A stretch of 36,856 nucleotides of DNA from Candidatus Eiseniibacteriota bacterium (GCA_034440375.1 JAWXBZ010000209.1:1-36856), one strand, 5' to 3'. Positions 10,899-31,693 are shown, counted from the stretch's first letter. The notes: a model not told the origin generated them from the letters alone. Made by a program: numbers and translations.

Positions 10899-11708
10899 TT
10901 AGTGACGGCCGAGCGCTATCTTGATCTCGCTCCAGGTTACCGGGCGGACCGCCACCACGCGGGAGAACTTCTGAATTCGATGGTTGGTGAGATCCGCGAT
11001 GTAGATATCGCTGAACGAGTCGATCGCCAATCCAATGGGATGATTGAGTTGACCGATGTCCGCGCCGAACGCACCGAACCGCGCAAGGTACCCACCCGTG
11101 CCGGTGAATATCTGAAAGCGATGGTTGGCGAATTCGGAGGCGCAGACATTGCCGGCGGGATCCACCGCCACGCCGGTGGGAAGATCGAACTGGCCGTCGC
11201 CACTCCCCGTTGACCCCCACTGGGTGAGGTACGTGCCGGTGCCGGTGAACTTCTGGATCCGATTGTTGCCGGGATCCGCGACGTAGACATCGCCGGCGGC
11301 GTCGATCGCCAGTCCCCTGGGCAATGCGAACTGGCCGTCGCCGCTGAACTTCTGGATTCGATGGTTGCCGAGGTCCGCGACGTAGACATCACCGGTGGCG
11401 TCCACGGCTACTCCCGAGGGATTGTCGAACTGACCGGTGCCGGCGCCCCGGGAACCCCACTGGGCGAGGTAGTCGCCGGTGCTGTTGAATTTCTGGATGC
11501 GGTGATTGTAGAGGTCCGCCACGTAGACATGACGGTTCGTGTCCACTGCAATACCGGTGGGATTGTCGAACTGTCCGGCGCCGGCGCCGTAGGAGCCCCA
11601 CTCCGTGAGGTGGAACTCGAAGTCCATCGCGCCGACCGTCGCGGGCAGGAGGAGCGCCGGGACGATGAGCGCGATCGTGAATCCGAATCGTCTGACCGAT
11701 GATCTCAT
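10899..11708 (-). CDS. Secreted NHL-repeat beta-propeller protein (5 repeats, internal deletion) with TWxxIK tail
   Basis: GGAGGTGAG RBS, signal peptide, GQF..P.G.AVD..G.VYVAD..N.RIQKF repeats; ends VAVRPVTWSEIKIALGRH. Confidence 0.9.
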   Translation of the reverse strand: MRSSVRRFGFTIALIVPALLLPATVGAMDFEFHLTEWGSYGAGAGQFDNPTGIAVDTNRHVYVADLYNHRIQKFNSTGDYLAQWGSRGAGTGQFDNPSGVAVDATGDVYVADLGNHRIQKFSGDGQFALPRGLAIDAAGDVYVADPGNNRIQKFTGTGTYLTQWGSTGSGDGQFDLPTGVAVDPAGNVCASEFANHRFQIFTGTGGYLARFGAFGADIGQLNHPIGLAIDSFSDIYIADLTNHRIQKFSRVVAVRPVTWSEIKIALGRH

Positions 11709-11769
11709 CGACTCACCTCCGGCACACTTTGCTCCCGGCGTCAGCCCCGGTGGTTGATCCCTGTCACCG

Positions 11770-13560
11770 TCAGGATATCTTGAGGCGCTTCTCCAGCTCG
11801 GACAATTCCTCAGACAGCCCCGCCGGCAACTTCGCGCCGAACTTGTCGTAGTGGCTGCGGATGAGCGGCAGCTCGGCGGTCCAGCCAGGCACATCGATGG
11901 CCAGTATCTGCCTCATGGCGTCCTCGGACACGGATAGCCCTGACAGGTCGAGCGCGCCCTTGGCCGGCAGGCGGCCGATCGGCGTGTCGATGGCCTCGCC
12001 GCCGCCGGTGACCCGCTCGAAGACCCATTTCAGGACGCGGCTGTTTTCGCCGTAGCCGGGCCAGAGGAATTTGCCGTCGGCGCCCTTGCGGAACCAGTTC
12101 ACCTGGTAGATGCGCGGCAACTTCGCGGCGTCCGCGCCGGCGCCGATCTTCAGCCAGTGTGCGAAATAATCGCCCATGTGATAGCCGCAGAACGGCAGCA
12201 TGGCGAAAGGATCGTGCCGAAGCTGTCCGACGGTTCCGGCGGCGGCGGCGGTCATCTCACTCCCCATGATCGAACCGAGGAAGGTGCCGTGCTGCCACGA
12301 GCGCGCTTCGTTGACCAGCGGCACCACGGTGGCACGGCGACCGCCGAACAGGATGGCGGAGATCGGCACGCCATTCGGATTTTCCCACTCGGAGGAGATG
12401 ACCGGGCACTGTCTGGCCGGCGTCGTGAATCGGGCGTTGGGGTGGGCGGCCGGTCGACCCGACGTCGGCGACCAGGGGCGGCGCAGCCAATCGACCAGCG
12501 ATGCGGGCGCCGCGTGGGTCATCTGCTCCCACCAGACATCGTTGTCGGGCGTCAGGGCGCAGTTGGTGAAGATCGAGTTCTTCTGGGCGGTGACCATGGC
12601 ATTCGGGTTCGACTTCATGCTGGTGCCGGGCGCCACGCCAAAGAATCCGGCCTCCGGATTGATGGCATGCAGGCGGCCGTCGGCTCCGAATTTCATCCAG
12701 GCGATGTCATCGCCGACTGTTTCGATTTTCCAACCGGGGAGCGTCGGATTCATCATGGCCAGGTTCGTCTTGCCGCAGGCGGAGGGGAACGCCGCGGCCA
12801 CGTAAATCTTGCTGCCGGCCGGATCGGTGATGCCGAGGATCAGCATGTGCTCGGCCATCCATCCCTCGTCCCGGGCCTGAACGGACGCGATGCGCAGCGC
12901 ATGGCACTTCTTGCCGAGCAGGGCGTTGCCGCCGTAACCGGAGCCGTACGACCAGATCTCGCGCGTTTCCGGGAAGTGGCTGATGTACTTGGTTGTCGGA
13001 TTGCACGGCCAGGGGCTGTCGGGCGCATTTCCCTTGAGCGGGGCACCGATCGAATGAAGGCCCCGGACGAATTCGCCGTCCGTGCCCAGGACATCCAGCA
13101 CCTTCGTGCCGACGCGGGCCATGATATGCATGTTGGCCACCACGTACGGGCTGTCGGAAATCTCCACGCCGATCTTGGCGATCGGCGAACCGATCGGCCC
13201 CATGCTGTAAGGCACGACGTACATCGTGCGGCCGGTCATGCAGCCGGTGAACAGCGGCGTCAGCGTGGCCTTCATCCCGGCCGGATCGCGCCAGTTGTTG
13301 GTCGGTCCGGCGTCATCCTTCGACTTCGAGCAGATGAAGGTGAACTCCTCGACCCGGGCTACATCGGCCGGATCAGAACGGACAAAGATGCTGTTGGGCC
13401 GTTTGACCGGATCCAGCCACTGGGCCGTTCCGGTCTGCACCATCAGGTTGAGCATTCGCTGATATTCGGCATCCGACCCATCGCACCAGACCACATGGTC
13501 CGGCTGGCAGAGGGTGGCCGTTTCCTTGACCCAGGTTTCCAGCGTTGCGTGCTTCGTCAT
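11770..13560 (-). CDS. pckG: Phosphoenolpyruvate carboxykinase (GTP)
   Basis: [38 protein letters not shown] and NWFRK motifs. Confidence 0.98.
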
Positions 13561-13645
13561 GAGTAATGGCCTTCACAGGAGAATTAGCGTCAGGCGCGCC
13601 CAGTGGCGCCGCGCCCGACCGGGGCGCGGCGCAAGGGCGGCAATA

Positions 13646-14698
13646 TTAGCGCCGCAGGCGTCGCCGGAGAAGCCCCGCCGGCAGAATCAGGAACAGGACG
13701 CTCTCCAGCGGCAAAACGGATCCGAAGGGGGCGTTGGACCATCGAAGCTCCCGGTCCGAGGGAGCCCGTACGACCATCTGGCTGCCCGTCATGGCATCAC
13801 TGGTCCGAAATGTGCGGTCGAGGCGGGTCAGGAAGGCACCCGGGCGAAGCCGTGAGCCCACTTCCGAAAATCCATTGTTGATGGCGGTCAATTCGGTGTG
13901 GGAAATCTGGTTGACGTAGTTCGTTTGAAATCCGGCGAGATCCACCCGGTGATCGTCGACCACGTAAAAGATGACGGGAAAGAAATCATCCCGGTTGATG
14001 GCCATCAACTCCAGGGGCACTTCAACCTCGTCGGCCGCATACCGGAATTCCACGGGGTTAACGTTCACATCCCAGCCACCGGCAGGCCGCCGCGCCTCCG
14101 GGCTGGCCGGGTCGAGTTTCATCGCCGTGAAGACCCAGCCGCGCGCCACGTAGCGGCCGAGAGCCTGGGCCTCGGGCTCGGTGACCTGAAACCCGTTGCC
14201 GCTCAGCCAGGCGACCAGACCCTGCGGATCAGTGGCGCGGATCGTCGTGGCCAGAAAGCTGCCGACGGAGGTTCTGGCGATGATTTCGACGTCGGTGGGG
14301 GCCGCATTGTCCCTGCCTGCCAGGACCTGCTCCCCCCCGCACCCGGATCCTCCGGAGGAAAACGTTCTCGGAGGCGGCGCCGTGAGGCTGGTAGCCTGCT
14401 GCCAGATTTCCTTCGCCACCGGATGCAACGTCGGCACGGTCGGTGTCGGCACGACCAGGGCAAACGAGTTGGCCAACCCCGATAGCCGAATGTTGGGAAT
14501 GACCCGCACGAGGCCGTTCTCACGATCCATGATGACAAAGGTGGCCTGGCCGCTGTTCTCGATGTCACAGTCGAAGCAGGGAAACACGGTGCACATGGCC
14601 GAGACTGGAACGGCGACAGTGCCGGAAATAAACAGGACGATGGCAAGCGACAGAAGCGCGGCCGCAATCCGCCGCCGGACGAAGGATGGCGATGACAT
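13646..14698 (-). CDS. DUF2330-family exported protein with a C-terminal hydrophobic plus Arg-rich anchor
   Basis: GGAGG RBS, signal peptide, FALVVPTP, L.AWL..NGF and YV..GWVF.AMKL motifs; ends LFLILPAGLLRRRLRR. Confidence 0.85.
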   Translation of the reverse strand: MSSPSFVRRRIAAALLSLAIVLFISGTVAVPVSAMCTVFPCFDCDIENSGQATFVIMDRENGLVRVIPNIRLSGLANSFALVVPTPTVPTLHPVAKEIWQQATSLTAPPPRTFSSGGSGCGGEQVLAGRDNAAPTDVEIIARTSVGSFLATTIRATDPQGLVAWLSGNGFQVTEPEAQALGRYVARGWVFTAMKLDPASPEARRPAGGWDVNVNPVEFRYAADEVEVPLELMAINRDDFFPVIFYVVDDHRVDLAGFQTNYVNQISHTELTAINNGFSEVGSRLRPGAFLTRLDRTFRTSDAMTGSQMVVRAPSDRELRWSNAPFGSVLPLESVLFLILPAGLLRRRLRR

Positions 14699-14715
14699 GA
14701 TGTACCTCCCGTGAA

Positions 14716-15333: not shown

Positions 15334-15435
15334 CAGGAACCTCCCGGTCGAAGCGGACCCGCAAGGGAAACCGGGCCAACAGGAGTGTAGCGCGCCGGGG
15401 ACCCGGGTGGTGGTGCGAATCTGTTCCAACTGCCC

Positions 15436-16299
<864 letters not shown>

Positions 16300-16322
16300 G
16301 TATTCCTCCGACAAGGGGTCGC

Positions 16323-18581
16323 TCAGGACCCGGACCTGGATTTCGTTGCGGCTGGTTTCTTTGGCGCGGTCTTTTTGGCCGCCGGTTTTTTTGCCGCCGG
16401 TTTCTTTGCCGTGGCCGCACCCGGGGCCTTTGGCGCCATCCCGATCTGGGCGAAAACGAATGACCAGATGTCCGTGTACTCCTCGACCAGTTTGCGCACC
16501 GGCTTGCCGGCTCCGTGGCCCGCCCGCGTTTCCAGTCGGAGCAGCACCGGCCGCCCCGAGGTCGAGGCCGCCTGCAGACGAGCCGTCATCTTGCGGGCAT
16601 GAAGCGGCGCCACGCGACTGTCGGATTCGGCGGTGGCCAGGAGGATGGCCGGATAGACCGTTCCATCCTTGACGTTCTGGTACGGCGAGTAGCGTCGCAG
16701 GTATTCAAACTGCGTCGAGTCTTCCGCGGTGCCGTACTCCGGAATCCAGAGGCGGGCCACCAGAAACTGGTGATAGCGCAGCATGTCGAGCAGCGGTACC
16801 TGGCAGACGACGGCGCGGAAGAGATCCGGCTTCTGCACCAGCGCGGCGCCCACCAGAAGCCCGCCGTTCGACCCCCCCTGAGCCACCAGTTTCGACGACG
16901 AGGTGTACTTCTGCTTGATCAGCCACTCGGCGGCGGCCAGGTAGTCATCGAAAACATTCTGTTTCCGATCGAGCGTACCGGCCTGATGCCAGGCCTCGCC
17001 ATACTCACCCCCGCCCCGCAGGTTGGCGATGGCCAGGACGCCTCCCTGCTCCAACCAGAGAAATGAATTGCGCTGAAAGCCGGGCACCAGGCTCTGATTG
17101 AAGCCACCATAGCCGTACAGGAGCGTCGGGTTGGTGCCGTTTTTTTTCAACCCCTTCTTATGCACCAGGAACATCGACACCGGTGTGCCATCCTTCGATG
17201 GGTAGGTCACCTGGTTCACGACATAGGCGCTTGAATCAATATCGGCCGCCACCCGATCGAACTCGGTCAGCCCCCCGGTGGCCGGATCAACCCGGTAGAC
17301 GATCGGCGGCACGAAATACGAATGGAACAGGAGATATGCCTCGGTCCCGTCTGATTCTCCGTTGAGGCACGCCACCGTGCCACGGAGCGGGAGTGTCACC
17401 GGATTTTCGATAACCCCTTCCCGATTGACGATGACCACGCGGGACGAAGCCAGGTGAAGGTAGTGAAGAAACAATCGCCCGGCGATCACTGAAACGCTGG
17501 TCAGGGCATCCGGTCCTTCGGGCACGATCTCCACCCAGCCGGCGCGTTCGGGTGCAGCCGGATCGACCCGGTACAGGCGCCCGCGGGGCGCTCCGGCGTT
17601 CGTCCAGAGGAAGATTTCGCCGGAGCCGAAGTGGGCTTCGTAGCGCGCCGCCTCCCCCGCCACCAGTGTTCGCCAGCCGGCCACGGGTGCCTGGCGGTCG
17701 GTGAGATACAGCTCCGTTCTATCCCAGCCAATGCTGACGGAGGCCAGGAGCCAGCGGCCATCACGCGAGATCTGGACATCGACCCAATCCTCGGGCGCGC
17801 GGCCATCACCGAAAATCAGCGAGTCCGCGCGGTGGTCGGTATCGAGAAGGTGGCGGAAAATGCGCCGGTGGTAATTCTCATCACCGCGCGGCACGTCGCC
17901 GATGTCGGGATATCGCGTGTAGTAAAACCCGGTGGCATCGGGGAGCCAGGCCACCGAGGCTGCACGTGTTCGAGGAATTTCCTCGATTCGATCCCGACCG
18001 GTGTCGACATCCCGCACGCGAAGCGTGCTCCACTCATCGCCGTTGCGGGAGGATCCCCAGGCGACCAGCAACCCGTCGGGCGAGGGGTACCACCAGTCGA
18101 GCGCGGTCGTGCCATCGCCCGAAAGCGTGTTCGGATCGATCAGGACGCGGGAGCCACCGGAATCGCGCAGGTACAGGACGGGCTGCTCCTGGTCCCCGCT
18201 CCGCTTGAGATAGAAAAGACGCCCACCCCGCGCTTTCGGTGCGTCAATGGTGCCGATGGTCATGAGCTGGCTCAGCCGCTCGCGAATGTAGTCGCGGCCG
18301 GGCACCGCATCCAGGAGCAGCCGCGTGTAGGCGTTCTGCGTTCCAGTCCACTGCCGGACCTCGGTCGAGCGATCGTCTTCGAGCCAGCGGTAGGGGTCGC
18401 GCATGGAAACGCCGTGGATCGTCTCCACGACATCCTCAAGGCGCGTTTCCGGTGGAAGGGTGATGAGCGTGTCGGATGGCACGGTCGGGGCATCCTTCCG
18501 TTTGGGGGCGGCAGTCGTCGTGGCAACCCATCCGCAGCAGGCGAGAAGGCCGCCCAGGGTGAGAAGAACCGCCCGGGTCAT
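16323..18581 (-). CDS. Secreted prolyl oligopeptidase (S9A) with a histone-H1-like basic tail
   Basis: Signal peptide, [14 protein letters not shown], catalytic GGSNGG, DSRV and AGHG motifs; ends [23 protein letters not shown]. Confidence 0.95.
16345..16412 (-). repeat. Degenerate 15-nt coding tandem repeat (AKKPA-like pentapeptide, about 4 copies)
   Basis: Units such as gccgccggtttcttt and gccgccggttttttt encode the peptidase tail. Confidence 0.8.
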
Positions 18582-18592
18582 CAATGGCGGAA

Positions 18593-19777
18593 TTACAGCA
18601 TCTCCACGGCCAGCGCCACCGCGTTACCCCCACCGAGGCAAAGGGTGGCCATACCGGTCTTCTTGCCGCGATCTTTGAGGGCATACAGCAGGGTCGTGAG
18701 CACGCGGGCGCCCGAAGCGCCGATCGGGTGCCCCAGCGCCACCGCGCCGCCGTTCACATTGACCCTTTTCCAATCCCACTCCAGCTCGCGGCCATCGACC
18801 AGCGCCTGTGCACTGAATGCCTCGTTAGCCTCGATCAAATCCCAGTGGTTGATGTCGACGTTCATTTTTTCCATGAGCTTCCGAACCGCCACGACCGGCG
18901 CGTAGAACAACATCTCCGGTTCGGTGCCGCCGGTGGTGTAGCCGGTGATGCGGGCCATCGGTATCAAGCCGAGTGCCTTCGCCCGATCGGCCGACATGAC
19001 CACCAATGCCGAGGCGCCATCGTTCACCGAGGGGGCATTGCCCGCAGTGACGCTGCCGTCCTTCTGGAACGCCGGCTTGAGCGCCGACAGCTTTTCGATG
19101 GTCGTGTCGCGGCGCGGGCCTTCATCCATATTCACGACGAGCGGTTCGCCCTTCCGTTGCGGAATGACGACATCCACGATCTCGCTCTTGAACTTCCCGG
19201 CATCCATGGCGGCCACGGCCTTCATCTGGCTGTCGAGCGCGAACCTGTCCTGATCCTCACGGGTCACCTTGAATTTGGCGGCGATGAACTCCGCCGCGGC
19301 ACCCATGTGATAGTTGTTGTACACATCCCACAAACCGTCATGGATCATGCCGTCGACGATCTGCTGGTGCCCCATCTTGAATCCTTCGCGCGCGCCGAAC
19401 AGGTAGTACGGCGCCCGGCTCATGCTCTCAAAACCGCCGGCCAGTACCACGTCCGCATCGCCCGCCTTGATGGCCTGCGCCGCCAGCATCACCGCCTTGA
19501 GACCCGACCCGCACACCTTGTTGACCGTGAAGGCGCCAACCGTGTCCGGCACGCCGCCGAAGTGCGCCGCCTGCCGTGCCGGTGCCTGTCCGACCCCCGC
19601 CTGCAGCACATTCCCCATGATCACTTCTTCGATGGCATCCGGTTCGATACCGGCCCGCAGGATGGCTTCCCGAACGGCCACGGCACCCAGTTCGGGGGCC
19701 TTGAGGCTGGCCAGCCCCCCCTGAAAACGACCAACCGCCGTACGGCAGGCACTGACGATCACGACCTCGCGGGACAT
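18593..19777 (-). CDS. atoB: Acetyl-CoA C-acetyltransferase (thiolase)
   Basis: NKVCGSG, NEAF, GHPIGASG and CLGGG motifs; AAGGAGGT RBS before MSREV. Confidence 0.96.
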   Translation of the reverse strand: MSREVVIVSACRTAVGRFQGGLASLKAPELGAVAVREAILRAGIEPDAIEEVIMGNVLQAGVGQAPARQAAHFGGVPDTVGAFTVNKVCGSGLKAVMLAAQAIKAGDADVVLAGGFESMSRAPYYLFGAREGFKMGHQQIVDGMIHDGLWDVYNNYHMGAAAEFIAAKFKVTREDQDRFALDSQMKAVAAMDAGKFKSEIVDVVIPQRKGEPLVVNMDEGPRRDTTIEKLSALKPAFQKDGSVTAGNAPSVNDGASALVVMSADRAKALGLIPMARITGYTTGGTEPEMLFYAPVVAVRKLMEKMNVDINHWDLIEANEAFSAQALVDGRELEWDWKRVNVNGGAVALGHPIGASGARVLTTLLYALKDRGKKTGMATLCLGGGNAVALAVEML

Positions 19778-19891
19778 TCGGATACCTCCTTCATGCTGCG
19801 GCACATATTTGAAGCGCCCAAAAGGGTACCGCAGCCGACGACACCTCTCAACTCAAGACGGCTGTTTGTCCTGCATCCTCAAACCCTGAAA

Positions 19892-20605
19892 TCAATCGAG
19901 GAGTGACTTGATTCCTCCCCAGGTGGAGGGAAGCACCGGCATGTCGTCGCAGGCGATGTCGCAGGGATTGCACCCGTTTTCCGTGCCGCCGGACGAGAAA
20001 GCCGCCGAGCCAAGGTCGCGACCCGCGTCCAGTGTCACCAGTGCCGACTGGCAGTTGCGAAGGGAGGCGATGCCGGATACCGGCTCGGCCGCAAGACGCA
20101 GAACATCGGCCGAATAAGCCCCGATGTAGAAATAACCGGCCACCGCCGCCTCGCCTTCCTGGCAACTTTCCGGCAGATCCCATCTGATCGTGATGCCACC
20201 GCCGGGCCGGGGCCATTCGGGGGCACCGGTCGAGATGTTGTCGATGGTGGCGCACGACCGCCACGCCAGGACATCGATGCCGACCCGATCACCAATTGCC
20301 CCGGCCGCACCACCCTGGTAGTCGATGCCGCAACGCACCTCGGCGACTCCCGTCATGGAGGTGCCGCGAGCGGCGAGAAGATACACGAAATAGTAGGGCC
20401 CTTCGGCCGGTGTCGTGAGGCCCCCGGACGTGACAGCCTCCACGCAGTCGCCCAGGGCGCCATGGTTCGCGCACGGGCTCTGCACGATCGGCGGGCGGAC
20501 ATGTAAAAGCAGTTTGGGCTGGCCGTCCCAGGGGGCGGACAGGGCGGGGCGGGGCGGAACGACAGCGAGCAGGAGCGCGAGACCAGCGAGTGGAATGAGC
20601 CGCAT
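19892..20605 (-). CDS. Secreted Cys-rich hypothetical protein with TWxxIK tail
   Basis: GGAGG RBS, signal peptide, 9 Cys; ends DMPVLPSTWGGIKSLLD. Confidence 0.85.
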   Translation of the reverse strand: MRLIPLAGLALLLAVVPPRPALSAPWDGQPKLLLHVRPPIVQSPCANHGALGDCVEAVTSGGLTTPAEGPYYFVYLLAARGTSMTGVAEVRCGIDYQGGAAGAIGDRVGIDVLAWRSCATIDNISTGAPEWPRPGGGITIRWDLPESCQEGEAAVAGYFYIGAYSADVLRLAAEPVSGIASLRNCQSALVTLDAGRDLGSAAFSSGGTENGCNPCDIACDDMPVLPSTWGGIKSLLD

Positions 20606-20694
20606 GAAAGACCTCCAATGGTTTTGACTGCCGACTTTCGATTGGCAGCCCTGAGCCAGACAGCTTCCATCTTATGCTGAATTGACGTGAAGGA

Positions 20695-21675
20695 CTACGG
20701 GCGCGCGGCCTGCGCCTTGATCCGGCTCCAGGTGGATTCCTCGACCGGAACGATGAATGGGCCGAACTTCTGGACCCGGTCGTTGCCGTTGTCCACGACG
20801 TAGACGAAACCGGCGGCATCGACTTCGACGCCTGAAGGGCCGCGGAACTGCCCGTTGCCGCCGCCGATCGTCCCCCATTGGTCAAGATAGGCACCGGCCG
20901 GCGTGAAAATCTGAATGCGATTGTTGGCTGAGTCGGCCACGTAGACATTGCCGTCCGGAGCCACGGTGACATCGTATGGAAACTGAAGCTGACCATTGCC
21001 GGCGCCGAATCCGCCAAATTGCGCCAGGTAAGTGCCGGTACCGGTGAATTTCTGGATGCGATTGTTGTTGGGGTCGGCCACGTAGACATTGCCGCCGGCA
21101 TCCACCGCCACGCCGGTCGGAAAGTCGAACTGGCCATTGCCGGTGCCGAGCGATCCCCATTCCGTCAGGTAGGTGCCCGTGCTCGTGAATTTCTGAACGC
21201 GATTATTCAGCGCATCGGTCACGTAGACATCGCCGCTCGCGTCAACGGCCACGCCATCTGGATAATTGAAAAGGCCGGCGGTGTTGCCAAATGCACCCCA
21301 ACTCGTCAGGTAGGCGCCGGCGGTCGTAAATTTCTGAATCCTATTGTTGCTGTGATCCGATACGAAAATGTTTCCGGAGCCATCCATGGCCGCGCCGAGT
21401 GGCACGATCATCTGGCCGGATGCGGATCCAAACGTACCCCACTGGTTCACGTAGCCGCCAGTACTCGTGAAGACCTCGATGCGATTATTTCCCGCATCCA
21501 CCACGTACACATTGCTGGCGGCGTCCAGCGCCAGACCGTACGGCAGGTTGAGCTGGCCGTTCCCGCTGCCGCTGGTTCCCCACTGTGTGATGTAGACGGG
21601 TGGAGCCGCGGACGTGGCGAGAGGGGTGAGGGCGAGGAAGGCGAATGGCAGGAGTAGCATTGGATGAGTACGCAT
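20695..21675 (-). CDS. Secreted NHL-repeat six-bladed beta-propeller with TWxxIK tail
   Basis: GGAGG RBS, signal peptide, six ~47-aa NHL repeats; ends IVPVEESTWSRIKAQAARP. Confidence 0.92.
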   Translation of the reverse strand: MRTHPMLLLPFAFLALTPLATSAAPPVYITQWGTSGSGNGQLNLPYGLALDAASNVYVVDAGNNRIEVFTSTGGYVNQWGTFGSASGQMIVPLGAAMDGSGNIFVSDHSNNRIQKFTTAGAYLTSWGAFGNTAGLFNYPDGVAVDASGDVYVTDALNNRVQKFTSTGTYLTEWGSLGTGNGQFDFPTGVAVDAGGNVYVADPNNNRIQKFTGTGTYLAQFGGFGAGNGQLQFPYDVTVAPDGNVYVADSANNRIQIFTPAGAYLDQWGTIGGGNGQFRGPSGVEVDAAGFVYVVDNGNDRVQKFGPFIVPVEESTWSRIKAQAARP

Positions 21676-21705
21676 GGCGGACCTCCGGTGATGAGGATGA
21701 TTCCT

Positions 21706-21739: not shown

Positions 21740-21765
21740 CTCCCCGTCTCCCCGGGCTCGGCTGA

Positions 21766-24280: not shown

Positions 24281-24371
24281 GAGGCTCCCTGGGAGAGACG
24301 ATCCCGATCAACTGCCGACGACAGTCAGCTTACCCAAATCGGACCATGTGATCGAGCGGCGCCTACAATTT

Positions 24372-24404
24372 GTCGAAACCCGAAAGCTGGTCGTCCTGAG
24401 ATAG
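24372..24404 (+). pseudogene. Extreme 3' remnant of an FlgD-tail gene (VETRKLVVLR*)
   Basis: 24375-24404 matches the last 30 nt of the downstream gene (ETRKLVVVR*) at 25/30 positions, including the stop. Three of the five mismatches are synonymous. Confidence 0.6.
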
Positions 24405-24569
24405 CGAGACCTTCTGGAGACCGGCAACCGGCGCACCGTTACAGAATCTTTACACCTTGGCGATGGCCAACTTGCAAACATGGCCGTATGTTTTGTTACA
24501 AGAAGAACCTTTTCGAGGGCAGTCCGGGACTGCCCCACTTTGCGTCCCGCGATCCGTGCGAGGTGCATC

Positions 24570-26291
24570 ATGCGAGCAACAGGTCCCCAATTTTGTCTTG
24601 GAGTGCTTGCGCTTGGAGCCCTCCTGCTGCTGGGCCCGTCCGGGCTCGCTGCGCGCCCCCTGTTGAATCCGGGCTTGCGCGGGCCGGTGGTACCGACGGA
24701 ACGACCGGCCATTGCCGAGGTGCTTCATCTCGCCGCCACGGCAGGCCCGGATACTAACTGGTACGGAGGAACTGTCTGGGCCGCCGATTCGAATCGGTGG
24801 GAGGCAATCCCCGATGGCATCTGGACCTTTGAATCGGGCGTTGGCTCATCCATCCAGAACGCGATGCCGGAGCAACAGAAGCCGAACGGGTATCACCGCC
24901 AGATGGAAGGGTGGCTCGGGCATGTCCGAGGGAACGAGCTGCCGGATATCGGCTTTCGGCGGGCTACCGACTGCGTCATTACCGGAGATTATTCCCTGTG
25001 GGCCGGACGCACTCAAGCCGAGGCGGAGGCGTCCTGCTGGCCCGGCGGGCGGGGATACGGAAACGGGATTAACGCGGTGGTCGAACGGACATTCGCTTAC
25101 CCCGGGGCCGGCAACGTCACATTGGAATTCGATTTTGCCGTCGATTCGGAACCGGGTTTCGACTATCTCAGTCTGACGGTCCAGCCCTCCGGCGCTGCGA
25201 GCCCGGTCGTACTGAACAGCTGGAACGGAATGACCACCGGACATGCCGTCTTCACGCTCCGCACCATCGACGGCACGCTGCCGGCCGGAGCGGGCACCGT
25301 GACCATCCGATTCATTGCCGACTCGGACGGCGCGTACAGCGACGAGGATGGCCTGTATCTGACGTCGTGCGGCCACTCGGCCATCGACAATATTCAGTTG
25401 ACCGGCGCGATCGTGCACACCGCCACCTTCGAATCGTCGACGGACGGATGGGATGCCGTTGTCCCGGCCACGCCCCCTGTCGAAGATTTCAGCAGTCTGG
25501 ATGACGTGGACGACCTCCCGCCGCCGGCCGGTTTCACGGGACGGTGCGGCACCAGCGATTCCGTCCTGGTGTTCATCAATCCCGCAGGTCAGCATCCTGC
25601 CGGGCAATCCAATGTGGCCGGATCTCCCTGGATCGACCTGCGAGCGGGCGGCGATGTCGGCCGGCCCGGGATGATCGTCCGCTTCGATGCCTACTCCGGC
25701 ACGAACACCAGTGTGACGCCGAACCTGGCGTGGGGTGTCCAGTACTACCCATGGACCTGCCCGGTCACCGGGGAGGTGGGTGTCAGTCCCCCGATCTTCA
25801 ACGGCTTCTTCTTTTTCTTCGGCGCTCCGTCCTGCGGCCCGGTCACGTACAATCTGCGAAACCTGGTGCCGACGTCCGCCGAACAGCTACGAGTCTTCCT
25901 GGGTCCCCACCCGTACGGATCCTTCAACACGAATGCCGGACCCTGGATCGACAATGTCCGAGTGGCCGTGTTCGGTGGGGCCACGAGCGGCACGGAGCCG
26001 GCCCCGGCCAAGCCCACCTACCTGACCGAGGCCCGGCCAAACCCCGCCTCCGGCGCCACCCGCATCGTCTTCGGCGTGGCCCGAAACAACACGCCCACGC
26101 GTATCGAGATCTTCGACATCGCAGGGCGCCGCGTCCGGACACTCCTTGATCGAAGCCTGGATGCGGGCTCGCACGAGATCGTCTGGGATGGCCGGGCAGA
26201 GGATGGCAGCGAGGTCGTCGCCGGGCTTTACTTCTATCACTACGAGAGCGGGAGCCTTTCGGAGACGCGGAAGCTGGTCGTCGTCAGATAG
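24570..26291 (+). CDS. Secreted multi-domain protein with a C-terminal FlgD-Ig / T9SS-CTD-like domain
   Basis: GAGGTG RBS, signal peptide, a MAM / immune-inhibitor-A-like jelly-roll (DSEPGFDYL...F.ADSDGAYSDEDG...IDNI), and a C-terminal PNP...IFDIAGRRVRTL...WDGR...GLYFY...RKLVVVR. Confidence 0.88.
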   Translation: MRATGPQFCLGVLALGALLLLGPSGLAARPLLNPGLRGPVVPTERPAIAEVLHLAATAGPDTNWYGGTVWAADSNRWEAIPDGIWTFESGVGSSIQNAMPEQQKPNGYHRQMEGWLGHVRGNELPDIGFRRATDCVITGDYSLWAGRTQAEAEASCWPGGRGYGNGINAVVERTFAYPGAGNVTLEFDFAVDSEPGFDYLSLTVQPSGAASPVVLNSWNGMTTGHAVFTLRTIDGTLPAGAGTVTIRFIADSDGAYSDEDGLYLTSCGHSAIDNIQLTGAIVHTATFESSTDGWDAVVPATPPVEDFSSLDDVDDLPPPAGFTGRCGTSDSVLVFINPAGQHPAGQSNVAGSPWIDLRAGGDVGRPGMIVRFDAYSGTNTSVTPNLAWGVQYYPWTCPVTGEVGVSPPIFNGFFFFFGAPSCGPVTYNLRNLVPTSAEQLRVFLGPHPYGSFNTNAGPWIDNVRVAVFGGATSGTEPAPAKPTYLTEARPNPASGATRIVFGVARNNTPTRIEIFDIAGRRVRTLLDRSLDAGSHEIVWDGRAEDGSEVVAGLYFYHYESGSLSETRKLVVVR

Positions 26292-26332
26292 GCCCGGTGC
26301 GGAGGCTCTTCGCGCGGACGAGATAGAGAAAG

Positions 26333-26851: not shown

Positions 26852-26853
26852 CG

Positions 26854-28437
26854 TCAGCGTCCCTTCTGGCCCAGGCGGAACGCGCCGAGTTGACGCCAGG
26901 GAGAAGACGGGTCGTCGTCCGCGGAGTACTGGCCACCAACGCCCGCCGCCGGGCCGCGGCCGTTGCCGATCATCCCCAACCGCTCCCACTCGGCCATCGC
27001 CGCCAGGGCCAGCACGTCGGTGCCTGGTGGCGATTCATGCGCGTGCCAGTTGGCGAGATGGGTATCGAGGAAATCGATCGGCGTGCGGCCGGCCATGAAC
27101 TCGGGATGCCGGACAACGGCCTGAAGGAAAGGCAGATTGGTCGTCAAGCCCAGCAACACCGTCTCCGCCAGTGCGCGCTGCATGCGGGCCACGGCCCGCT
27201 CGCGCGAATAGTCGTGAACGATGATCTTGGCCAGGATCGGGTCGTAGTGAACGCCCACATGCCAGCCGGCCATGATGCCGGAATCGACCCGCACGCCGGG
27301 TCCCTCGGGCGCCTTGAACATCAGTACCGGGCCGGACGACGGCAGGAACCCACGCTCCGGGTCCTCCGCGTACAGGCGGCATTCGATGGCATGGCCGCGC
27401 CACTCCACCACCGATTGACCGCGAGAGAGATCCTTGCCGGTGGCTTCAACCATCTGCATGCGCGCCAGGTCCATGCCGGTCACCATCTCCGTGACGGGAT
27501 GTTCGACCTGCAGGCGGGTATTCACTTCCAGGAAGTAGAAGCGGCCGGATTCGTCCAGGAGAAACTCGCAGGTGCCGGCACTTCGATAGCCCGCCGCACG
27601 CACCAGCGTCACGGCCGCGTCGGCCATCACCTCGCGCACGGCCGGCTCGATGGTCGGCGAGGGGCTCTCCTCCACAATTTTCTGATGTCGCCGCTGGATG
27701 CTGCACTCGCGTTCGCCCAGGTGGATGACATGGCCGTGCGCGTCGGCGAAGACCTGGATTTCAACGTGATGCGCCGGGCTCACGAAGCGCTCAACAAGAA
27801 GCCGACTGTCGCCAAACGCCGCGTGCCCCTCGCGACGGGCCGATCGAATCGCTTCCGGAAGATCCTTCTCGTGATCGACGCGGCGCATCCCCTTGCCGCC
27901 GCCACCGGCCACCGCCTTGAGAAGGAGCGGAAACCCGACCCCCTTCGCCTTCGTGATCAGGGCCGCGTCAGCCTTCTTTGCATCCAATGGCTCCGCGGAA
28001 CGGTCCATGCGATCGCGTTCCGAGTCATCGCCCGACACGGTCGGAATGCCGAGCTTGGCCGCCAGCGCCTTGGCCCCGAGTTTGTCGCCCAGCAGGCGCA
28101 TCGCCTCCGGCGGCGGGCCGACCCAGATGAGGCCGGCATCGATCACCGCCTGCGCAAACTCCGCGTTTTCGGACAGAAATCCGTAGCCGGGATGGATGGC
28201 CTCAGCACCGGAAGCCCGCGCCGCCTCCAGCACCGCCGGAATGGACAGGTACGATTCCGCGGCCGGTGCCGGCCCGATTCCGATGGCGCGATCCGCTTCC
28301 AGCACATGCAGCGCCGCGCGATCCGCATCCGAATGAACGGCGATGGTTTCGAGGCCCAGCTCACGCGCCGCGCGGATCAGTCGAACCGCGATCTCACCCC
28401 GGTTGGCGATGAGAAGCCGGTGAAACTCGCGGCTCAT
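26854..28437 (-). CDS. liuD: Biotin carboxylase subunit of methylcrotonyl-CoA carboxylase
   Basis: LIANRGEIA, HPGYGFLSEN, GGGGKGMR, ERECSIQRRHQK and EVNTRLQVEH motifs; start at 28437 by ATGA overlap. Confidence 0.93.
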   Translation of the reverse strand: MSREFHRLLIANRGEIAVRLIRAARELGLETIAVHSDADRAALHVLEADRAIGIGPAPAAESYLSIPAVLEAARASGAEAIHPGYGFLSENAEFAQAVIDAGLIWVGPPPEAMRLLGDKLGAKALAAKLGIPTVSGDDSERDRMDRSAEPLDAKKADAALITKAKGVGFPLLLKAVAGGGGKGMRRVDHEKDLPEAIRSARREGHAAFGDSRLLVERFVSPAHHVEIQVFADAHGHVIHLGERECSIQRRHQKIVEESPSPTIEPAVREVMADAAVTLVRAAGYRSAGTCEFLLDESGRFYFLEVNTRLQVEHPVTEMVTGMDLARMQMVEATGKDLSRGQSVVEWRGHAIECRLYAEDPERGFLPSSGPVLMFKAPEGPGVRVDSGIMAGWHVGVHYDPILAKIIVHDYSRERAVARMQRALAETVLLGLTTNLPFLQAVVRHPEFMAGRTPIDFLDTHLANWHAHESPPGTDVLALAAMAEWERLGMIGNGRGPAAGVGGQYSADDDPSSPWRQLGAFRLGQKGR

Positions 28438-29234
28438 TCGCCCTCGGTCCAGGCGGGCTTGCGGCGCTCCAGGAATGCCGCCAGCCCCTCTTTCCCTTCG
28501 TCGGAGGCACGCCGCCCGGCGATCAACTCGGCGGTCATCTCGGTCACTTCGACGCTGTCGAGCCCGGTTGGTTTCAACAGGCGCGCGATGTGACTTTTTA
28601 TCGTGGCCACCGCCACCGGCGCCGCGGAGCGATACGCGTCGATCCATCGGTCGACCGCGGCATCAAGCGCCTCGATGTCGGCGGCCGCTTCGTGCGCCAG
28701 GCCAATCCGGCAAGCCTCGACCGTGTCGAATCGCTTGCCTGTGGTGAAGTGCGCCCGGGCCGCCGATGCGCCGATTTTGGCCAGCACGAAGGGCGAGATG
28801 ACCGCCGGCAGGATCCCGAGTTTCGTCTCGGTGAATCCGAACCTGGATGCCGCATCCGCGATGACCACGTCGCAGCAGGCTGCGAGCCCCGATCCCCCGC
28901 CCAGCGCCGCGCCATGAATCCGCCCGATGACCGGTTTCGGGCACTCGTTGATGGCGCGAAACATCCCCGCCAACCGCCGCGCATCCGCCCTGTTCTCCGA
29001 CGGCGTCATCTGCCCGATCGCCTTCATCATGCCGACATCGGCGCCGGCACAAAACGATTTGCCCCGCCCGCCTAGGACCACCACCCGCGCCGCTTCGTCC
29101 GCCGCCAGCTCGCCGAAAACCGCCGTAAGCTCGTCGATCATCTCGGTGCTGAGGGCGTTATGAACGTCGGGGCGGTTCAGCCAGACGCGACGGATGAAGC
29201 CTTGTGACTCGAGTTCAAGGGTCTGCCAGGCCAT
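28434..29234 (-). CDS. liuC: Enoyl-CoA hydratase, probably methylglutaconyl-CoA hydratase
   Basis: LNRPDVHNA, FCAGAD, GGGSGL (first catalytic Glu absent) and ETKLGILPAVISP motifs; located between the MCC subunits. Confidence 0.9.
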   Translation of the reverse strand: MAWQTLELESQGFIRRVWLNRPDVHNALSTEMIDELTAVFGELAADEAARVVVLGGRGKSFCAGADVGMMKAIGQMTPSENRADARRLAGMFRAINECPKPVIGRIHGAALGGGSGLAACCDVVIADAASRFGFTETKLGILPAVISPFVLAKIGASAARAHFTTGKRFDTVEACRIGLAHEAAADIEALDAAVDRWIDAYRSAAPVAVATIKSHIARLLKPTGLDSVEVTEMTAELIAGRRASDEGKEGLAAFLERRKPAWTEGE

Positions 29235-29249
29235 GACGATTCGATTACC

Positions 29250-30857
29250 TCACATCCGAAAAACGGGAAACTTCGTCTCCGGAATCGGTGCATTGAGCGC
29301 CGCGGACAGCCCAAGCGCCAGCACGTTACGCGTCTCCGCCGGATCGATGACGCCATCGTCCCACAGGCGCGCCGAGGAGTAGTAGGGATTTCCCTCGGCC
29401 TCGTACTTTTCGAGGATTGGCCGGGAAATCTCCTCGGCCTCTGCGTCAGACAGCGTCCTTCCCTGCGCGGCGAGCTGGTCGCGTTTGACGGTGACCAGCA
29501 CGCTGGCCGCCTGCTCGCCCCCCATCACGGAAATGCGGGCGTTGGGCCACATGAACAGGAGCCGCGGGCTGTAGGCGCGCCCGCACATGCCGTAGTTGCC
29601 GGCACCGAACGAGCCGCCGATGATGACGGTGAACTTGGGCACGGCGGCCGTCGCCACCGCCTGCACCAGCTTGGCACCATCCTTGGCGATGCCGCCGGCC
29701 TCATACCGCCGGCCGACCATGAAGCCGGTGATGTTCTGCAGGAAGATCAACGGGATTCGCCGTTGACTGCACAGCTCGACAAAGTGGGCCCCCTTCACGG
29801 CACTTTCCGAAAAGAGAACGCCGTTGTTGGCCAGGATGCCCACCGGATACCCATGCAGCCGGGCAAAGCCGGTCACCAGCGTCGGCCCGTACAGCGCCTT
29901 GAACTCGTGAAAGCGGCTGCCGTCGACCAGGCGCGCCACGATCTCGCGCACATCGAACGGGCGCCGCGTATCGCGCGGCAGGATCCCGTAGATCTCTTCG
30001 GGGTCATAGGCCGGCGGCTCGGCCGGACGAACATCGATATCGATCCGCTTTTTTCGATTGAGATTGGCCACGATCGAGCGCACCACTTCCAGGGCCCCGG
30101 CGTCGTCCATGGCCATGTGATCGACAACGCCGCTCGAGCGGCTGTGAACCTCCGCGCCCCCCAGGTCCTCGGCGCTGACCTCCTCGCCGGTGGCCGCCTT
30201 CACCAAGGGGGGCCCCGCCAGGAAGATGGTGCCGTTGCCACGCACGATGACCGTCTCGTCCGACATCGCCGGCACGTAGGCCCCGCCGGCCGTGCAGGAG
30301 CCCATGACCGCCGCCACCTGCGGAATCCCCGCTGCCGACATCTGCGCCTGCATGTAGAAAATCCGGCCGAAATGCTTCTCATCCGGAAAAATGTCCGCCT
30401 GGAGCGGCAGAAAGGCCCCGCCCGAATCAACCAGGTAAATGCAGGGAAGCCGGTTTTCAAACGCAATCTCCTGCGCCCGAATATGCTTCTTCACCGTCAG
30501 CGGATGATAAGTACCCCCCTTAACCGTGGCATCATTCGCCACAATCAAGCACTCCACCCCCTCCACCACCCCAATCCCCGTCACAATCCCCGCCGACGGC
30601 ACCTCATCCTCGTAAACCTCCCAGGCCGCCAGCGGCGACAACTCGAGGAAAGGCGTCCCGGGATCAAGGAGCCGCTCGATTCGATCCCGGACAAAGAGCT
30701 TTCCCCGCGCCTCATGCTTCTTCCGGTGGTCGGGAGCCCCGCCAAGCCGAACCTTCTCCAGACGCTCGCGGAGCTCGTCGCGCAGGCGACGATGGTGTTC
30801 GGCGTTGGCCTGGAAGTCGGGGTCGGTCGGGTGGATTTGACTGGAGATGGGTTGCAT
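29250..30857 (-). CDS. liuB: Methylcrotonyl-CoA carboxylase carboxyltransferase (beta) subunit
   Basis: [43 protein letters not shown] and SARLWDDG motifs, ending FPVFRM; start MQPISS. Confidence 0.96.
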
Positions 30858-30999
30858 TTCCCCTATCGTATTGCCGTCTAACGAGAAAGACAAGACGGCC
30901 GGCGCCTGCTTCGGATGCGCCGGCCATGAAAAAGTGAAGATACCGGCTGCCAAGAGTTGAAAATAGTGACCCTGGTCCAGCGTCCCCAATTCCACCAAA

Positions 31000-31035
31000 G
31001 GAAAGGCCCCCCGGCGAAACGCCGGGAGGCTTTCC
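31000..31035 (-). terminator. Rho-independent terminator
   Basis: Minus strand GGAAAGCCTCCCGGCG-TTT-CGCCGGGGGGCCTTTCC followed by TTTG, 46 nt downstream of the stop at 31082. Confidence 0.8.
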
Positions 31036-31081
31036 AATGCTCAATCTGAACCATCCCTCGCGGGCGGCTCGGAAGTTTTGC

Positions 31082-31693
31082 CTACTGAACCATCAGCGAC
31101 TTCACACGGCCCCAGGTCGTGTGTTCGGTGCCGAGGGGGGTGCAGGCGATCGCCAGCGTGGGGCCGCTGCCTGGGAAGCCGATCGTGGCGCTGGTCTGGC
31201 CGAGGCCGGCGTCGAAGACGTTGACGTGGACGATGAGGTTGTAGGTGCCCGGCGCGATCGAGAAGGAAGCTTCGTAGCCCTGGGCGTGGTTGGGGTCGGC
31301 GTCGTAGCCGACGCCGATGAAAGCGAAGTCGGGGGCGATTCCATCATCGCCGCTTGAGTCATTCACGACCTTGTTGTTCTGGGCATTTATGGCCACCCAG
31401 GCATCGCCGTCGACGAGGACCGGAACGCCCGGCACGGCCAGGACAAGAACGTACATCGTCTGGGTCAGGCAGTCGTATCGGAGGTAAAGTTTTGATTCGA
31501 GCGGCTTGTCGGCCTTGCCGGCCCGGTGCATGTTGGCGAAGAAGTCCTGGGCCAGGTTCCACTCGGAGGAATCGCCATCCACCACCGCTGACGAGAAGAG
31601 CGTGGGGGAATAGTTGTCGGCCAGTGCGGGGGCGGCCGACAGGAGAAGCAGGGCTGCGGAAGCAAGGATGCAATTCGTGGCAATGCGCTTCAT
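31082..31693 (-). CDS. Secreted hypothetical beta-sandwich protein with TWxxVK tail
   Basis: AGAGGAG RBS and signal peptide ending ALA. VVDG..SEW...LYLRYD...MYV resembles DOMON/CBM9-like starts. Ends TPLGTEHTTWGRVKSLMVQ. Confidence 0.88.
   Translation of the reverse strand: MKRIATNCILASAALLLLSAAPALADNYSPTLFSSAVVDGDSSEWNLAQDFFANMHRAGKADKPLESKLYLRYDCLTQTMYVLVLAVPGVPVLVDGDAWVAINAQNNKVVNDSSGDDGIAPDFAFIGVGYDADPNHAQGYEASFSIAPGTYNLIVHVNVFDAGLGQTSATIGFPGSGPTLAIACTPLGTEHTTWGRVKSLMVQ

Follow-up and report, generated by a model that had tools for sequence, protein, structure and literature searches.

Background

C-terminal sorting signals determine which exported proteins get to the bacterial cell surface, and to our knowledge those described are either folded domains, such as the C-terminal domains (CTDs) of T9SS, or a motif with a membrane helix, as in the sortase and exosortase types. 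For the T9SS CTDs, the last 22 residues are reported to suffice for GFP secretion (PMC5445135), loss of two C-terminal residues is reported to block the export of RgpB, and the KxxxK motif to lie at the very C-terminus (PMC5445135, PMC10202324). Of the conserved CTD residues, only a Lys close to the C-terminus, which hardly ever varies, is described as touching PorV (PMC10994853).

In the 3.96-Mb genome of an uncultured Candidatus Eiseniibacteriota bacterium from soil we analyzed a C-terminal tail of ~15-20 residues, in which an extended linker rich in Pro and Val leads into a short basic segment, [ST]-W-[GS]-x-[IVL]-K-x-L. An earlier note had drawn attention to it in one stretch of 36,856 nucleotides (referred to here as the window).

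Tagged proteins in the window

The tagged genes of the window, their tails, and one untagged protein used for contrast are as follows:

10899..11708 (-), gene 1, probable extent: exported NHL-repeat beta-propeller (translation; Pfam NHL, PF01436, E 2.1e-46)
10899..10955 (-), tail of gene 1, VAVRPVTWSEIKIALGRH and stop codon (translation)
19892..20605 (-), gene 2: exported Cys-rich protein of no family (translation)
19892..19945 (-), tail of gene 2, DMPVLPSTWGGIKSLLD and stop codon (translation; tail HMM E 7.5e-8)
20695..21675 (-), gene 3: exported NHL-repeat beta-propeller, paralog of gene 1 (Pfam NHL E 1.3e-46)
20695..20754 (-), tail of gene 3, IVPVEESTWSRIKAQAARP and stop codon (translation; tail HMM E 6.0e-8)
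31082..31693 (-), gene 4: exported beta-sandwich protein of an unnamed family (translation; AlphaFold2 model)
31082..31138 (-), tail of gene 4, PLGTEHTTWGRVKSLMVQ and stop codon (translation; tail HMM E 7.9e-8)
24480..26291 (+), contrast, untagged: 603-aa exported protein ending in a regular FlgD/T9SS type A CTD

Translation showed that all four proteins end as originally quoted, and BLAST clustering placed them in three families, two members being the NHL propellers, in agreement with the earlier description of four signal-peptide proteins of three types. The note's statement that cytoplasmic enzymes and lipoproteins of the window lack the motif was equally correct; the C-termini of the window genes showed it in none besides these four.

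The open reading frame of gene 1 (10899-11894, minus strand) is over-long; it stays open up to 11894, and a signal peptide begins at Met63, i.e., at 11708. This internal start was also chosen by gene calling, with a signal peptide detected from there, and the true extent is probably 10899-11708. The tail HMM matched gene 1 at 10908-10964 with an E value of 2.1e-6, the gene 1 tail itself being part of the training set. Genes 1 and 3 form one BLAST family, and the nearest NCBIfam model for the NHL proteins of the window was that of the PEP-CTERM protein ScyF, with a score under the cut-off. Gene 2 is one of 11 tagged paralogs genome-wide (the 'CNPC' family by BLAST clustering) and had no match in Pfam or NCBIfam. 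No Pfam or NCBIfam family was found for gene 4 either; its AlphaFold2 model has a sandwich at residues 45-182 (pLDDT over 90), the fold of which gave a weak CBM9-like match (E 0.017), and a tail at residues 188-203 (pLDDT about 41) that is unpacked on the domain. The 603-aa contrast protein matched PF13860 at 26052-26231 (37 bits) and TIGR04183 at 26037-26282 (34 bits).

Distribution of the tail in the genome

The pattern [ST]W[GSA].[IVLM]K gave 88 six-frame matches in the whole genome, and 72 of the 88 sit 2-10 residues before a stop. Among the 2827 called genes, [ST]W[GST].[IVL]K was found within the last 16 residues of 52, in comparison to 4 matches in the 1,099,428 residues elsewhere. The internal matches give a chance expectation of ~0.1 C-terminal matches, and the enrichment at C-termini computed from the two counts is roughly 460-fold, the C-terminal occurrence of the motif thus being far beyond chance. 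The signal peptide test, which was a lenient, home-made one applied to genes called likewise by our own script (neither is a standard tool), was positive for 45 of the 52 tagged genes and 891 of the 2775 other genes (odds ratio 13.6, Fisher p 1e-15). Both the C-terminal and the signal-peptide enrichment that the earlier note had envisaged for a proteome-wide regex search were therefore found.

The tagged genes belong to 38 families unrelated by BLAST, the largest of which has 11 paralogs, and nearly all have signal peptides, so that the proposed portability of the tail across unrelated proteins is borne out. Fourteen of the 20 tagged proteins scanned had no Pfam family, and the remainder were CHRD, LTD, beta-helix, NHL, and Golvesin_C proteins. 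The Ser after W is encoded by AGC (34), TCG (7), or AGT (7), and this synonymous variation in the tail codons shows that selection acts on the peptide rather than on a DNA repeat. The tail is not covered by any Pfam or NCBIfam model, and the literature searched gave no description of it, consistent with the view that it is not an already characterised family.

Conservation across phyla

In the genome studied the tail has the form TW[SG]x[IV]KxL followed by 3-6 variable residues. The widespread, or canonical, form is [ST]-W-G-x-[IVL]-K-x-[LI]-[YF]-R-stop, with [YF]-R-COOH as the exact end in most lineages. The canonical K-x-x-x-R-COOH end is absent here (0 matches to the end pattern in this genome), and the local form is derived from the more widespread one. 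A DNA pattern in which W was left unspecified (G-x-hydrophobic-K-x-hydrophobic-[YF]-R-stop) gave up to 39 matches per genome versus 0-1 for the reversed control, and W preceded G in 27 of the 28 tails sampled by this pattern.

Numerous small exported proteins of Eisenbacteria, Krumholzibacteria, Latescibacteria, and unnamed MAGs bear the canonical tail, while in Ignavibacteriota, Chlorobiota, Calditrichota, and their relatives it ends one conserved Fn3-like protein of ~135 aa. It is thus conserved across at least four named phylum-level labels, with W, G, K, and the terminal [YF]-R kept, and the recurrence in FCB-type candidate phyla and Poribacteria that the note had mentioned was confirmed, the latter by one MAG. 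In the orthologous family of gene 4, the tail is kept in 112 of the 120 homologs listed and the Lys is invariant in 30 aligned members. The W had been given as a fixed consensus residue and is not invariant, being replaced by F in 18 and by L in 10 of the 120 listed members of this family. Of 68 tails, 43 have a Cys no more than 25 residues upstream of W; it is missing in the other 25 and is hence not a universal attachment site.

Predicted structure and physical character

AlphaFold2 drew the tail as a linker and a short helix, free of its own domain, with pLDDT of about 41 for gene 4 and 64-79 in a second model. The helical hydrophobic moment of the tails was 0.417, compared with a mean of 0.364 and a 95th percentile of 0.66 for shuffled sequences, which lends weak support or none to the amphipathic helix suggested earlier, drawn as a short helix at pLDDT of about 41. 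The last 12 residues have a mean net charge of +1.9. Only 3-8 residues, mostly polar, follow the K before the stop, and a tripartite signal (motif, TM helix, and basic cluster) was ruled out by these residues. Since there is no hydrophobic anchor, the tail is not PEP-CTERM, LPXTG, or GlyGly-CTERM, as the note had stated. An outer-membrane beta-signal, which calls for a terminal aromatic residue after alternating hydrophobic ones, was also ruled out because the last residue of the tail is R or, in the genome studied, varies; the PorV-like barrels of this genome end in F or W.

Relationship to the T9SS and its CTD

The genome studied encodes SprA, PorU adjoining PorV, and more than 100 CTDs. With a local CTD HMM, a CTD was found in none of the 52 tagged genes and in 123 other genes, as expected if tail and FlgD/T9SS CTD exclude each other. 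Tagged proteins are small, with a median of 254 aa in comparison to 759 aa for CTD proteins, and tagged domains have paralogs which end in a CTD instead (one pair is 66% identical over 191 residues). The small Fn3-like protein of the Ignavibacteriota type matches, in the genome studied, the domain directly before the CTD of CTD proteins, and the Fn3 domains that it matches in fold include the Ig-like domain of PPAD, a T9SS cargo.

By family models and predicted fold, the tail itself is not a T9SS type A CTD: there was no NCBIfam or Pfam match and no seven-strand beta-sandwich, the AlphaFold2 models giving a linker and a short helix. Profile comparison with the CTDs of the genome studied, whose family motifs include D (PxGxYVV) and E (KxxxK), gave no significant likeness (hhalign probability 0.3%). 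The lead-in of the tail was said to resemble the linker before the CTD; the linkers of this genome differ, and what was observed is a weak 9-column hhalign match to the first CTD residues of Poribacteria CTDs (P 0.037-0.047; 0.5 for the reversed control). Nothing in the CTD profile corresponds to the second half of the tail (G-x-I-K-x-L-Y-R).

Across genomes, CTDs are present in 45 of 45 Eisenbacteria genomes of the panel, T9SS markers are found in every tag-rich genome tested, and SprA was above the cut-off in 17 of 19 tail-bearing genomes tested, the two others being the Poribacteria MAG, which has only weak SprA-like pieces, and a 1.0-Mb partial bin. In Eisenbacteria family f5, each of 16 genomes has 26-86 CTDs but only 0-4 tails, which indicates that T9SS alone does not predict tag use, and the number of PorV-like paralogs does not track tag number (3-5 in f5, 2-5 in tag-rich genomes). 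The co-occurrence of tail and T9SS could simply come from the shared ancestry of FCB-type phyla.

Possible explanations

Our leading, still tentative reading, to which we assign a probability of about 0.42, is that the tail serves as a minimal and portable signal for sorting or docking, linked to the envelope machinery of the T9SS. Its carriers are small, mostly single-domain Sec-exported proteins of T9SS bacteria, which have the tail where larger proteins have a CTD of ~80 residues. After Sec export, the flexible tail may be bound by an outer-membrane component of the T9SS, either a PorV-type shuttle or another part of the translocon, and this binding would send the protein across the outer membrane or dock it there. 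The tail would thus act as a minimal CTD substitute, with its invariant Lys in the role of the Lys conserved at the C-terminus of type A CTDs. In favor of this reading we count the position and portability of the tail, its occurrence in place of the CTD, its conservation, the T9SS genes of tail-bearing genomes, the published CTD work, and the tail left free of its domain by AlphaFold2. Counted against it are the lack of significant likeness to the CTD, the f5 genomes, the PorV-like paralog numbers, the two genomes with no clear SprA, the neighbourhoods of the tagged genes, in which no gene family was enriched, and the CTDs of the genome studied, whose basic residues at -6/-7 and -1 have a spacing unlike the canonical tail; moreover, since the terminal [YF]-R is lost in this genome, the analogy with KxxxK fails for its tails. 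A further step, which we consider somewhat less probable, is that the tail makes up a third, minimal class of T9SS signal, a linear peptide of ~10-20 residues in which the Lys (and canonically the C-terminal [YF]-R) would replace the 80-residue CTD and give small single-domain proteins access to the T9SS; in Eisenbacteria, Krumholzibacteria, and Latescibacteria it would have spread to dozens of cargoes per genome, and Ignavibacteriota and relatives would have kept one Fn3-like protein.

The tail may instead be a docking or retention tag independent of the T9SS, which binds a conserved envelope receptor outside the T9SS or, as a short basic helix, anionic lipid or LPS, and so keeps the protein attached to a membrane surface, be it periplasmic or on the cell. 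The positive charge of the last 12 residues and the short free helix drawn by AlphaFold2 fit such a tag, as do f5, rich in T9SS cargo and poor in tags, the PorV-like paralog number unrelated to tag number, and the lack of significant sequence likeness to the CTD. We nevertheless regard it as unlikely, because T9SS markers occur in every tag-rich genome tested, close paralogs of the tagged domains bear the extracellular T9SS CTD, the hydrophobic moment is not significant, and the different phyla share W, G, K, and the terminal [YF]-R, while lipid-binding helices usually conserve character and not sequence. A lone helix of 9-12 residues should also bind membranes weakly. MinD, FtsA, and PBP5 have C-terminal amphipathic membrane-targeting helices which are sequence-variable and mainly on the cytoplasmic face (that of PBP5 is periplasmic); the tail resembles them as a short, basic, partly hydrophobic C-terminal segment predicted to be helical, and differs in that its sequence is conserved across phyla and its amphipathicity is not significant.

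A signal for maturation rather than an address, recognised by an envelope protease or modifying enzyme and serving as a pro-peptide to be cleaved off, as an attachment site, or as a handle for quality control, seems to us improbable. Enzyme recognition would predict the fixed distance from the C-terminus and the Lys and Arg invariant in the canonical form, the CTD of type A cargo is described as cleaved by PorU (PMC10202324), which offers a precedent, and the upstream Cys of 43 of 68 tails could also be taken in its favor, but no peptidase or modifying enzyme was enriched near tagged genes and the variable ends in the genome studied argue against recognition of terminal residues there. That the tail has no function, being a chance motif, paralog ancestry, or the dead remnant of truncated CTDs, is scarcely credible. 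Although the largest tagged family has 11 paralogs and the lead-in is weakly like the first CTD residues, this view is already contradicted by the C-terminal position counts with their roughly 460-fold enrichment, the 38 unrelated families, conservation within orthologs and across phyla, and the result of the W-free pattern; the synonymous codon variation and the half of the tail without counterpart in the CTD profile speak against it as well.

Significance

The tail is neither known type of sorting signal, yet it marks ~2% of called genes in the genome studied and is met again in several uncultured phyla that soils and sediments commonly contain. If the T9SS reads it, a short linear peptide can replace a CTD, which would sharpen the question of what the translocon recognises, and the tail could provide a compact export tag; if something else reads it, these phyla would hold an unknown sorting or docking system. 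A tail HMM would flag hundreds of MAG 'hypothetical proteins' as envelope or surface proteins. Should the tail form a third class of T9SS signal, the single Fn3-like carrier in Ignavibacteriota and relatives would make the idea testable in cultivable relatives.

Comparison with known systems

In being short, portable, strictly C-terminal, and present on dozens of proteins per genome, the tail resembles PEP-CTERM/exosortase, LPXTG/sortase, GlyGly-CTERM/rhombosortase, and MYXO-CTERM. It shares with such tripartite signals a Pro-containing motif before the final segment, and they are found at its place in gene 4 homologs of other lineages, three of which end instead in a hydrophobic helix and basic cluster; it differs from them in having no hydrophobic TM stretch and no terminal Arg cluster. 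The C-terminal helix of F. johnsoniae SkpA, described as docking on the periplasmic face of PorV (PMC10994853), is likened here by description, since in it, too, an exported protein has a short helix at the C-terminus, which docks on an outer-membrane component of the T9SS; SkpA is presented there as a translocon chaperone and not cargo, and the Skp of the genome studied has no tag-like end. The T9SS type A CTD (TIGR04183/PF18962; FlgD_ig PF13860) shares with the tail the extreme C-terminus of Sec-exported proteins from many unrelated families in the same genomes and a conserved Lys a few residues from the end, with a basic last residue only in the canonical tail, whereas it is a beta-sandwich of 70-100 residues in comparison to 15-20 residues of predicted linker and short helix for the tail.

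Tagged genes in the window and in its genome

The tail, that is, the short C-terminal motif TW[SG]x[IV]KxL followed by three to six variable residues, had been quoted in the earlier note for four genes of the window; the ORF translations agree and the quoted ends are present in all four:

10899-11708, reverse strand: gene 1, NHL beta-propeller
19892-20605, reverse strand: gene 2, Cys-rich protein
20695-21675, reverse strand: gene 3, NHL beta-propeller
31082-31693, reverse strand: gene 4, beta-sandwich protein

The ORF of gene 1, 10899-11894, is over-extended by 62 codons; its signal peptide begins at Met63, and thus the true start is probably 11708. The two tagged proteins that are not NHL propellers matched no Pfam or NCBIfam family. 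By BLAST clustering, gene 2 belongs to the largest tagged family, which has 11 Cys-rich members, none of which matched a Pfam or NCBIfam family. Gene 2 and its 10 paralogs (contigs C11, C50, C101, C146 and C252) share a conserved N-terminal K-[LI]-[LM]-L-H and a C-N-P-C motif immediately ahead of the tail.

The source genome comprises 3.96 Mb in 264 contigs, of which the window is C209. When the whole genome was searched in six frames, the pattern [ST]W[GSA].[IVLM]K gave 88 matches, 72 of which sit 2-10 residues ahead of a stop. In a gene set of 2827 calls made by our own codon-usage script, which covers 87% of the genome, [ST]W[GST].[IVL]K was found within the last 16 residues of 52 genes and just four times among the remaining 1,099,428 residues of the proteome; about 0.1 C-terminal matches are expected by chance (our own arithmetic from the internal rate) in comparison to the 52 observed. 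In one of the four internal matches, C129:11086-12159, the motif is followed by 46 more residues with no stop, an extension which may stem from loss of the stop codon or from a frameshift.

The proposed enrichment among signal-peptide proteins was borne out, with 45 of the 52 tagged genes positive in comparison to 891 of the 2775 others (Fisher p 1e-15) in a lenient, home-made test; by eye, a signal peptide is visible in several of the 7 tagged genes that were negative in it. A clear lipobox was seen in only one of the 52. After the tails were stripped, the 52 genes fell into 38 BLAST-unrelated families, and 14 of 20 scanned tagged proteins carried no Pfam family, the remainder having CHRD, lamin-tail, beta-helix, NHL or Golvesin_C modules. 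The tail codons vary synonymously, and both Ser codon families are used after W, so the conserved entity is the peptide and not a DNA repeat.

Tail anatomy and comparison with the CTD

The consensus over 68 ORFs is P-V-P-V-[EA]-P-T-T-W-S-R-I-K-S-L-[LFI] with 1-3 residues more, and the commonest stop position is 4 or 5 residues past K (46 of 68 tails). In 43 of the 68 a Cys is present no more than 25 residues ahead of W, and it is thus not universal. Over the final 12 residues the net charge averages +1.9. In an AlphaFold2 model of gene 4, based on a 30-sequence alignment, a confident beta-sandwich was obtained, with the tail unpacked as a short helix (pLDDT ~41). The suggestion that the tail forms an amphipathic helix gained little support, since the helical hydrophobic moment calculated for the tails did not significantly exceed that of shuffled sequences and the modelled helix has this low pLDDT.

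[quoted passage not shown] A local CTD profile identified 123 genes with a C-terminal CTD and none of them is tagged, in agreement with the mutual exclusion that had been predicted; no fusion of tail and CTD was found in this genome. The median size is 254 aa for tagged proteins versus 759 aa for CTD proteins, and CTD-ending paralogs exist for several tagged domains, one being 66% identical across 191 residues. The earlier note had also likened the lead-in of the tail to the linker ahead of a CTD, a likeness which did not hold for the linkers of this genome; in a profile comparison the lead-in plus T-W gave only a weak match to the first CTD residues. A truncated CTD as the origin of the tail was rejected, since the tail showed no significant likeness to CTD profiles.

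In four places PorV-like barrel genes come directly after large CTD-bearing genes (C30:26332-32833, C75:15293-18988, C150:2254-6556 and C241:122-9206), repeating the porU-porV order of contig C196; these neighbours look like private cargo-and-shuttle pairs.

Distribution within Eisenbacteria

At E up to 1e-3, 228 homologs of gene 4 were retrieved, and the ends were classified for the 120 listed. Most tails among these listed homologs have a Y-R end exactly four residues past K.

Ends of the 120 listed homologs of window gene 4
W-type tail: 84/120
Same tail with F: 18/120
Same tail with L: 10/120
Hydrophobic helix and basic cluster: 3/120
Fragments or other: 5/120

A detector independent of W, namely a DNA pattern for G-x-hydrophobic-K-x-hydrophobic-[YF]-R-stop, was applied to 45 Eisenbacteria genomes and gave up to 39 matches per genome in comparison to 0-1 for the reversed control. 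With one tail sampled per genome, the residue ahead of G was W in 27 of 28 tails and F in one. The widespread, canonical form reads [ST]-W-G-x-[IVL]-K-x-[LI]-[YF]-R-stop. The W-independent pattern had no match in the source genome in comparison to 2-15 in its family and order, so the tail of the window is a derived form, in which W is followed by S and the end varies.

Within the phylum, a tail HMM trained on the source genome matched 137 of 151 genomes, the unpublished G015 included, and 71 of 72 genera, with per-genome counts to be read as at least 58 at their maximum. Searched against 5.8 billion proteins, the tail profile, a query too short for a census, gave 32 matches at E up to 10, and those with names were all from Eisenbacteria. 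In a search for orthologs of gene 4 in tag-poor genomes, the family was absent from all 30 genomes covered.

Tandem arrays of five to seven tagged genes of ~0.7-1 kb were observed in four genomes (G140:C3:410003-416179, G160:C65:74882-78328, G056:C164:315-5830 and G088:C8:141726-144785), within which the tail codons are nearly identical.

Occurrence outside the phylum

A cross-species scan, with one genome per species and the pattern T-W-G-x-hydrophobic-K-x-hydrophobic-[YF]-R-stop biased to A/T wobble positions, returned at least 80 loci, and the tails among those listed fall into two classes. The first consists of diverse small exported proteins, 175-376 residues long, which have signal peptides and share the lead-in; they come from MAGs labelled Krumholzibacteriia, Latescibacteria/-ota, Eisenbacteria, Poribacteria (one locus) or simply 'bacterium'. 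Canonical ends in whole genomes numbered 28 in Latescibacteria, 44 in Krumholzibacteriia and 13-45 in five 'bacterium' MAGs, in comparison to 0-1 for controls. For the Poribacteria MAG they numbered 5 versus 2 for the control, and the tail HMM had no match in it.

The second class, which accounts for about 60 of the 81 tails among those listed, is a single conserved protein of ~135 aa in which a signal peptide and one Fn3-like domain precede a tail that hardly varies (loci L060-L139, e.g. L076:1204-1611, reverse strand). It was found in MAGs labelled Ignavibacteria, Melioribacter (including M. roseus), Kapaibacterium, Chlorobiota, Caldithrix, Kryptonia and Bacteroidota. This family is single-copy and occurs in lineages with cultured members; it matched no family in Pfam or NCBIfam, and in the ESM Atlas it led to clusters of hypothetical proteins. 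A Maf-like gene lies directly downstream at 36 of 60 loci. AlphaFold2 predicted an Fn3-like sandwich with a 12-residue terminal helix (pLDDT 64-79), and Foldseek matched it to Fn3 domains, including an Ig-like domain, that of the T9SS cargo PPAD. The domain is one of a very large family of repeats, and a search of representatives gave 88,626 matches at E up to 1e-3, mostly giant multi-repeat proteins. In the source genome it matches the domain directly ahead of the CTD in CTD proteins, so the tail again stands where a CTD would.

Co-occurrence with T9SS and candidate readers

Many CTDs were found in all 45 Eisenbacteria genomes of the panel, and SprA was above the cut-off in 17 of the 19 tail-bearing genomes tested, the exceptions being a 1.0-Mb partial bin and the Poribacteria MAG (G151; e.g. 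loci L215-L244 and C281:33343-37206). The latter gave 37 matches to the type A CTD and, within a frame of 2124 aa, weak SprA-like pieces; its CTDs begin N-P-E-T-W, and [WFYL]G.[IVLM]K was found around the CTD start in none of its 29 CTD proteins. The Eisenbacteria family f5 (16 genomes of 2.2-3.5 Mb, e.g. G017, G023 and G054) has 26-86 CTDs and 0-4 tails per genome, whereas equally small genomes of family f8 have 14-21 tails. Being rich in CTDs and poor in tails, f5 shows that the converse, T9SS implying the tag, fails. It is tag-poor by two detectors but not tag-free, with real tails in G024 and G031, and thus a simple presence/absence profile of the reader is not expected.

Up to three genes away from tagged genes no family was enriched, and an adjacent gene was thus rejected as reader; the best uncorrected p was 2e-3, for an enoyl-CoA-hydratase-like family. 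A tagged gene adjoins paralogous thiolase-like and enoyl-CoA-hydratase-like genes (names guessed) at 15436-19804 of the window and at C52:21775-24700 of the same genome, and this neighbourhood gave the best signal, which was not significant. A PorV-like paralog lies 1.8 kb upstream of one tagged gene on C30. A dedicated PorV-like paralog was rejected as reader as well, the paralog number not tracking the tag number in 45 genomes. PMC10994853 describes SkpA as docking on PorV through a C-terminal helix; an analogy to it was dismissed, since the Skp of the source genome has no tag-like end.

Interpretation and comparison with known signals

The tail, a conserved peptide of exported proteins, is portable and strictly C-terminal; it is placed where a sorting signal would stand, in lineages that bear T9SS. 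We tentatively read it as a signal for localisation that is linked to the T9SS envelope machinery (probability about 0.4), a reading in which we infer what reads the tail, which route the protein takes and where it ends up. No tag-rich genome without T9SS markers was found among the genomes tested; that the tail could serve independently of T9SS, as a docking or membrane-binding tag, is considered unlikely. A processing signal would be a distinctly improbable explanation, and that the tail should have no function is barely credible. The remaining probability belongs to mechanisms beyond these four.

What is new here is a W-independent detector with its own control, the derived form of the tail, the Fn3-tail family, a T9SS-rich yet tag-poor family (f5), the way in which tag-bearing genomes nest within T9SS-positive ones, and the finding that neither adjacent genes nor PorV-like paralogs emerged as readers. 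A literature search, with subscription-only papers and supplements outside its scope, found no paper on the tail motif, on C-terminal sorting in Eisenbacteria, or on T9SS in Eisenbacteria, Krumholzibacteria or Latescibacteria.

In the accessible parts of five sources (PMC5445135, PMC10202324, PMC10994853, bioRxiv 10.1101/483123, PMC12618676), T9SS signals are described as folded domains, which come in three types (A, B and C) and are read by PorV or PorP/SprF-like shuttles, and no natural short tail is described as such a signal. For the type A CTD, the review PMC5445135 reports that the last 22 residues are enough for secretion of GFP, and PMC5445135 and a second review, PMC10202324, that export is blocked by loss of two C-terminal residues and that PxGxYVV and KxxxK are the most conserved motifs. 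According to PMC10994853, PorV is contacted by a Lys close to the C-terminal end of the CTD, a residue that is almost invariant.
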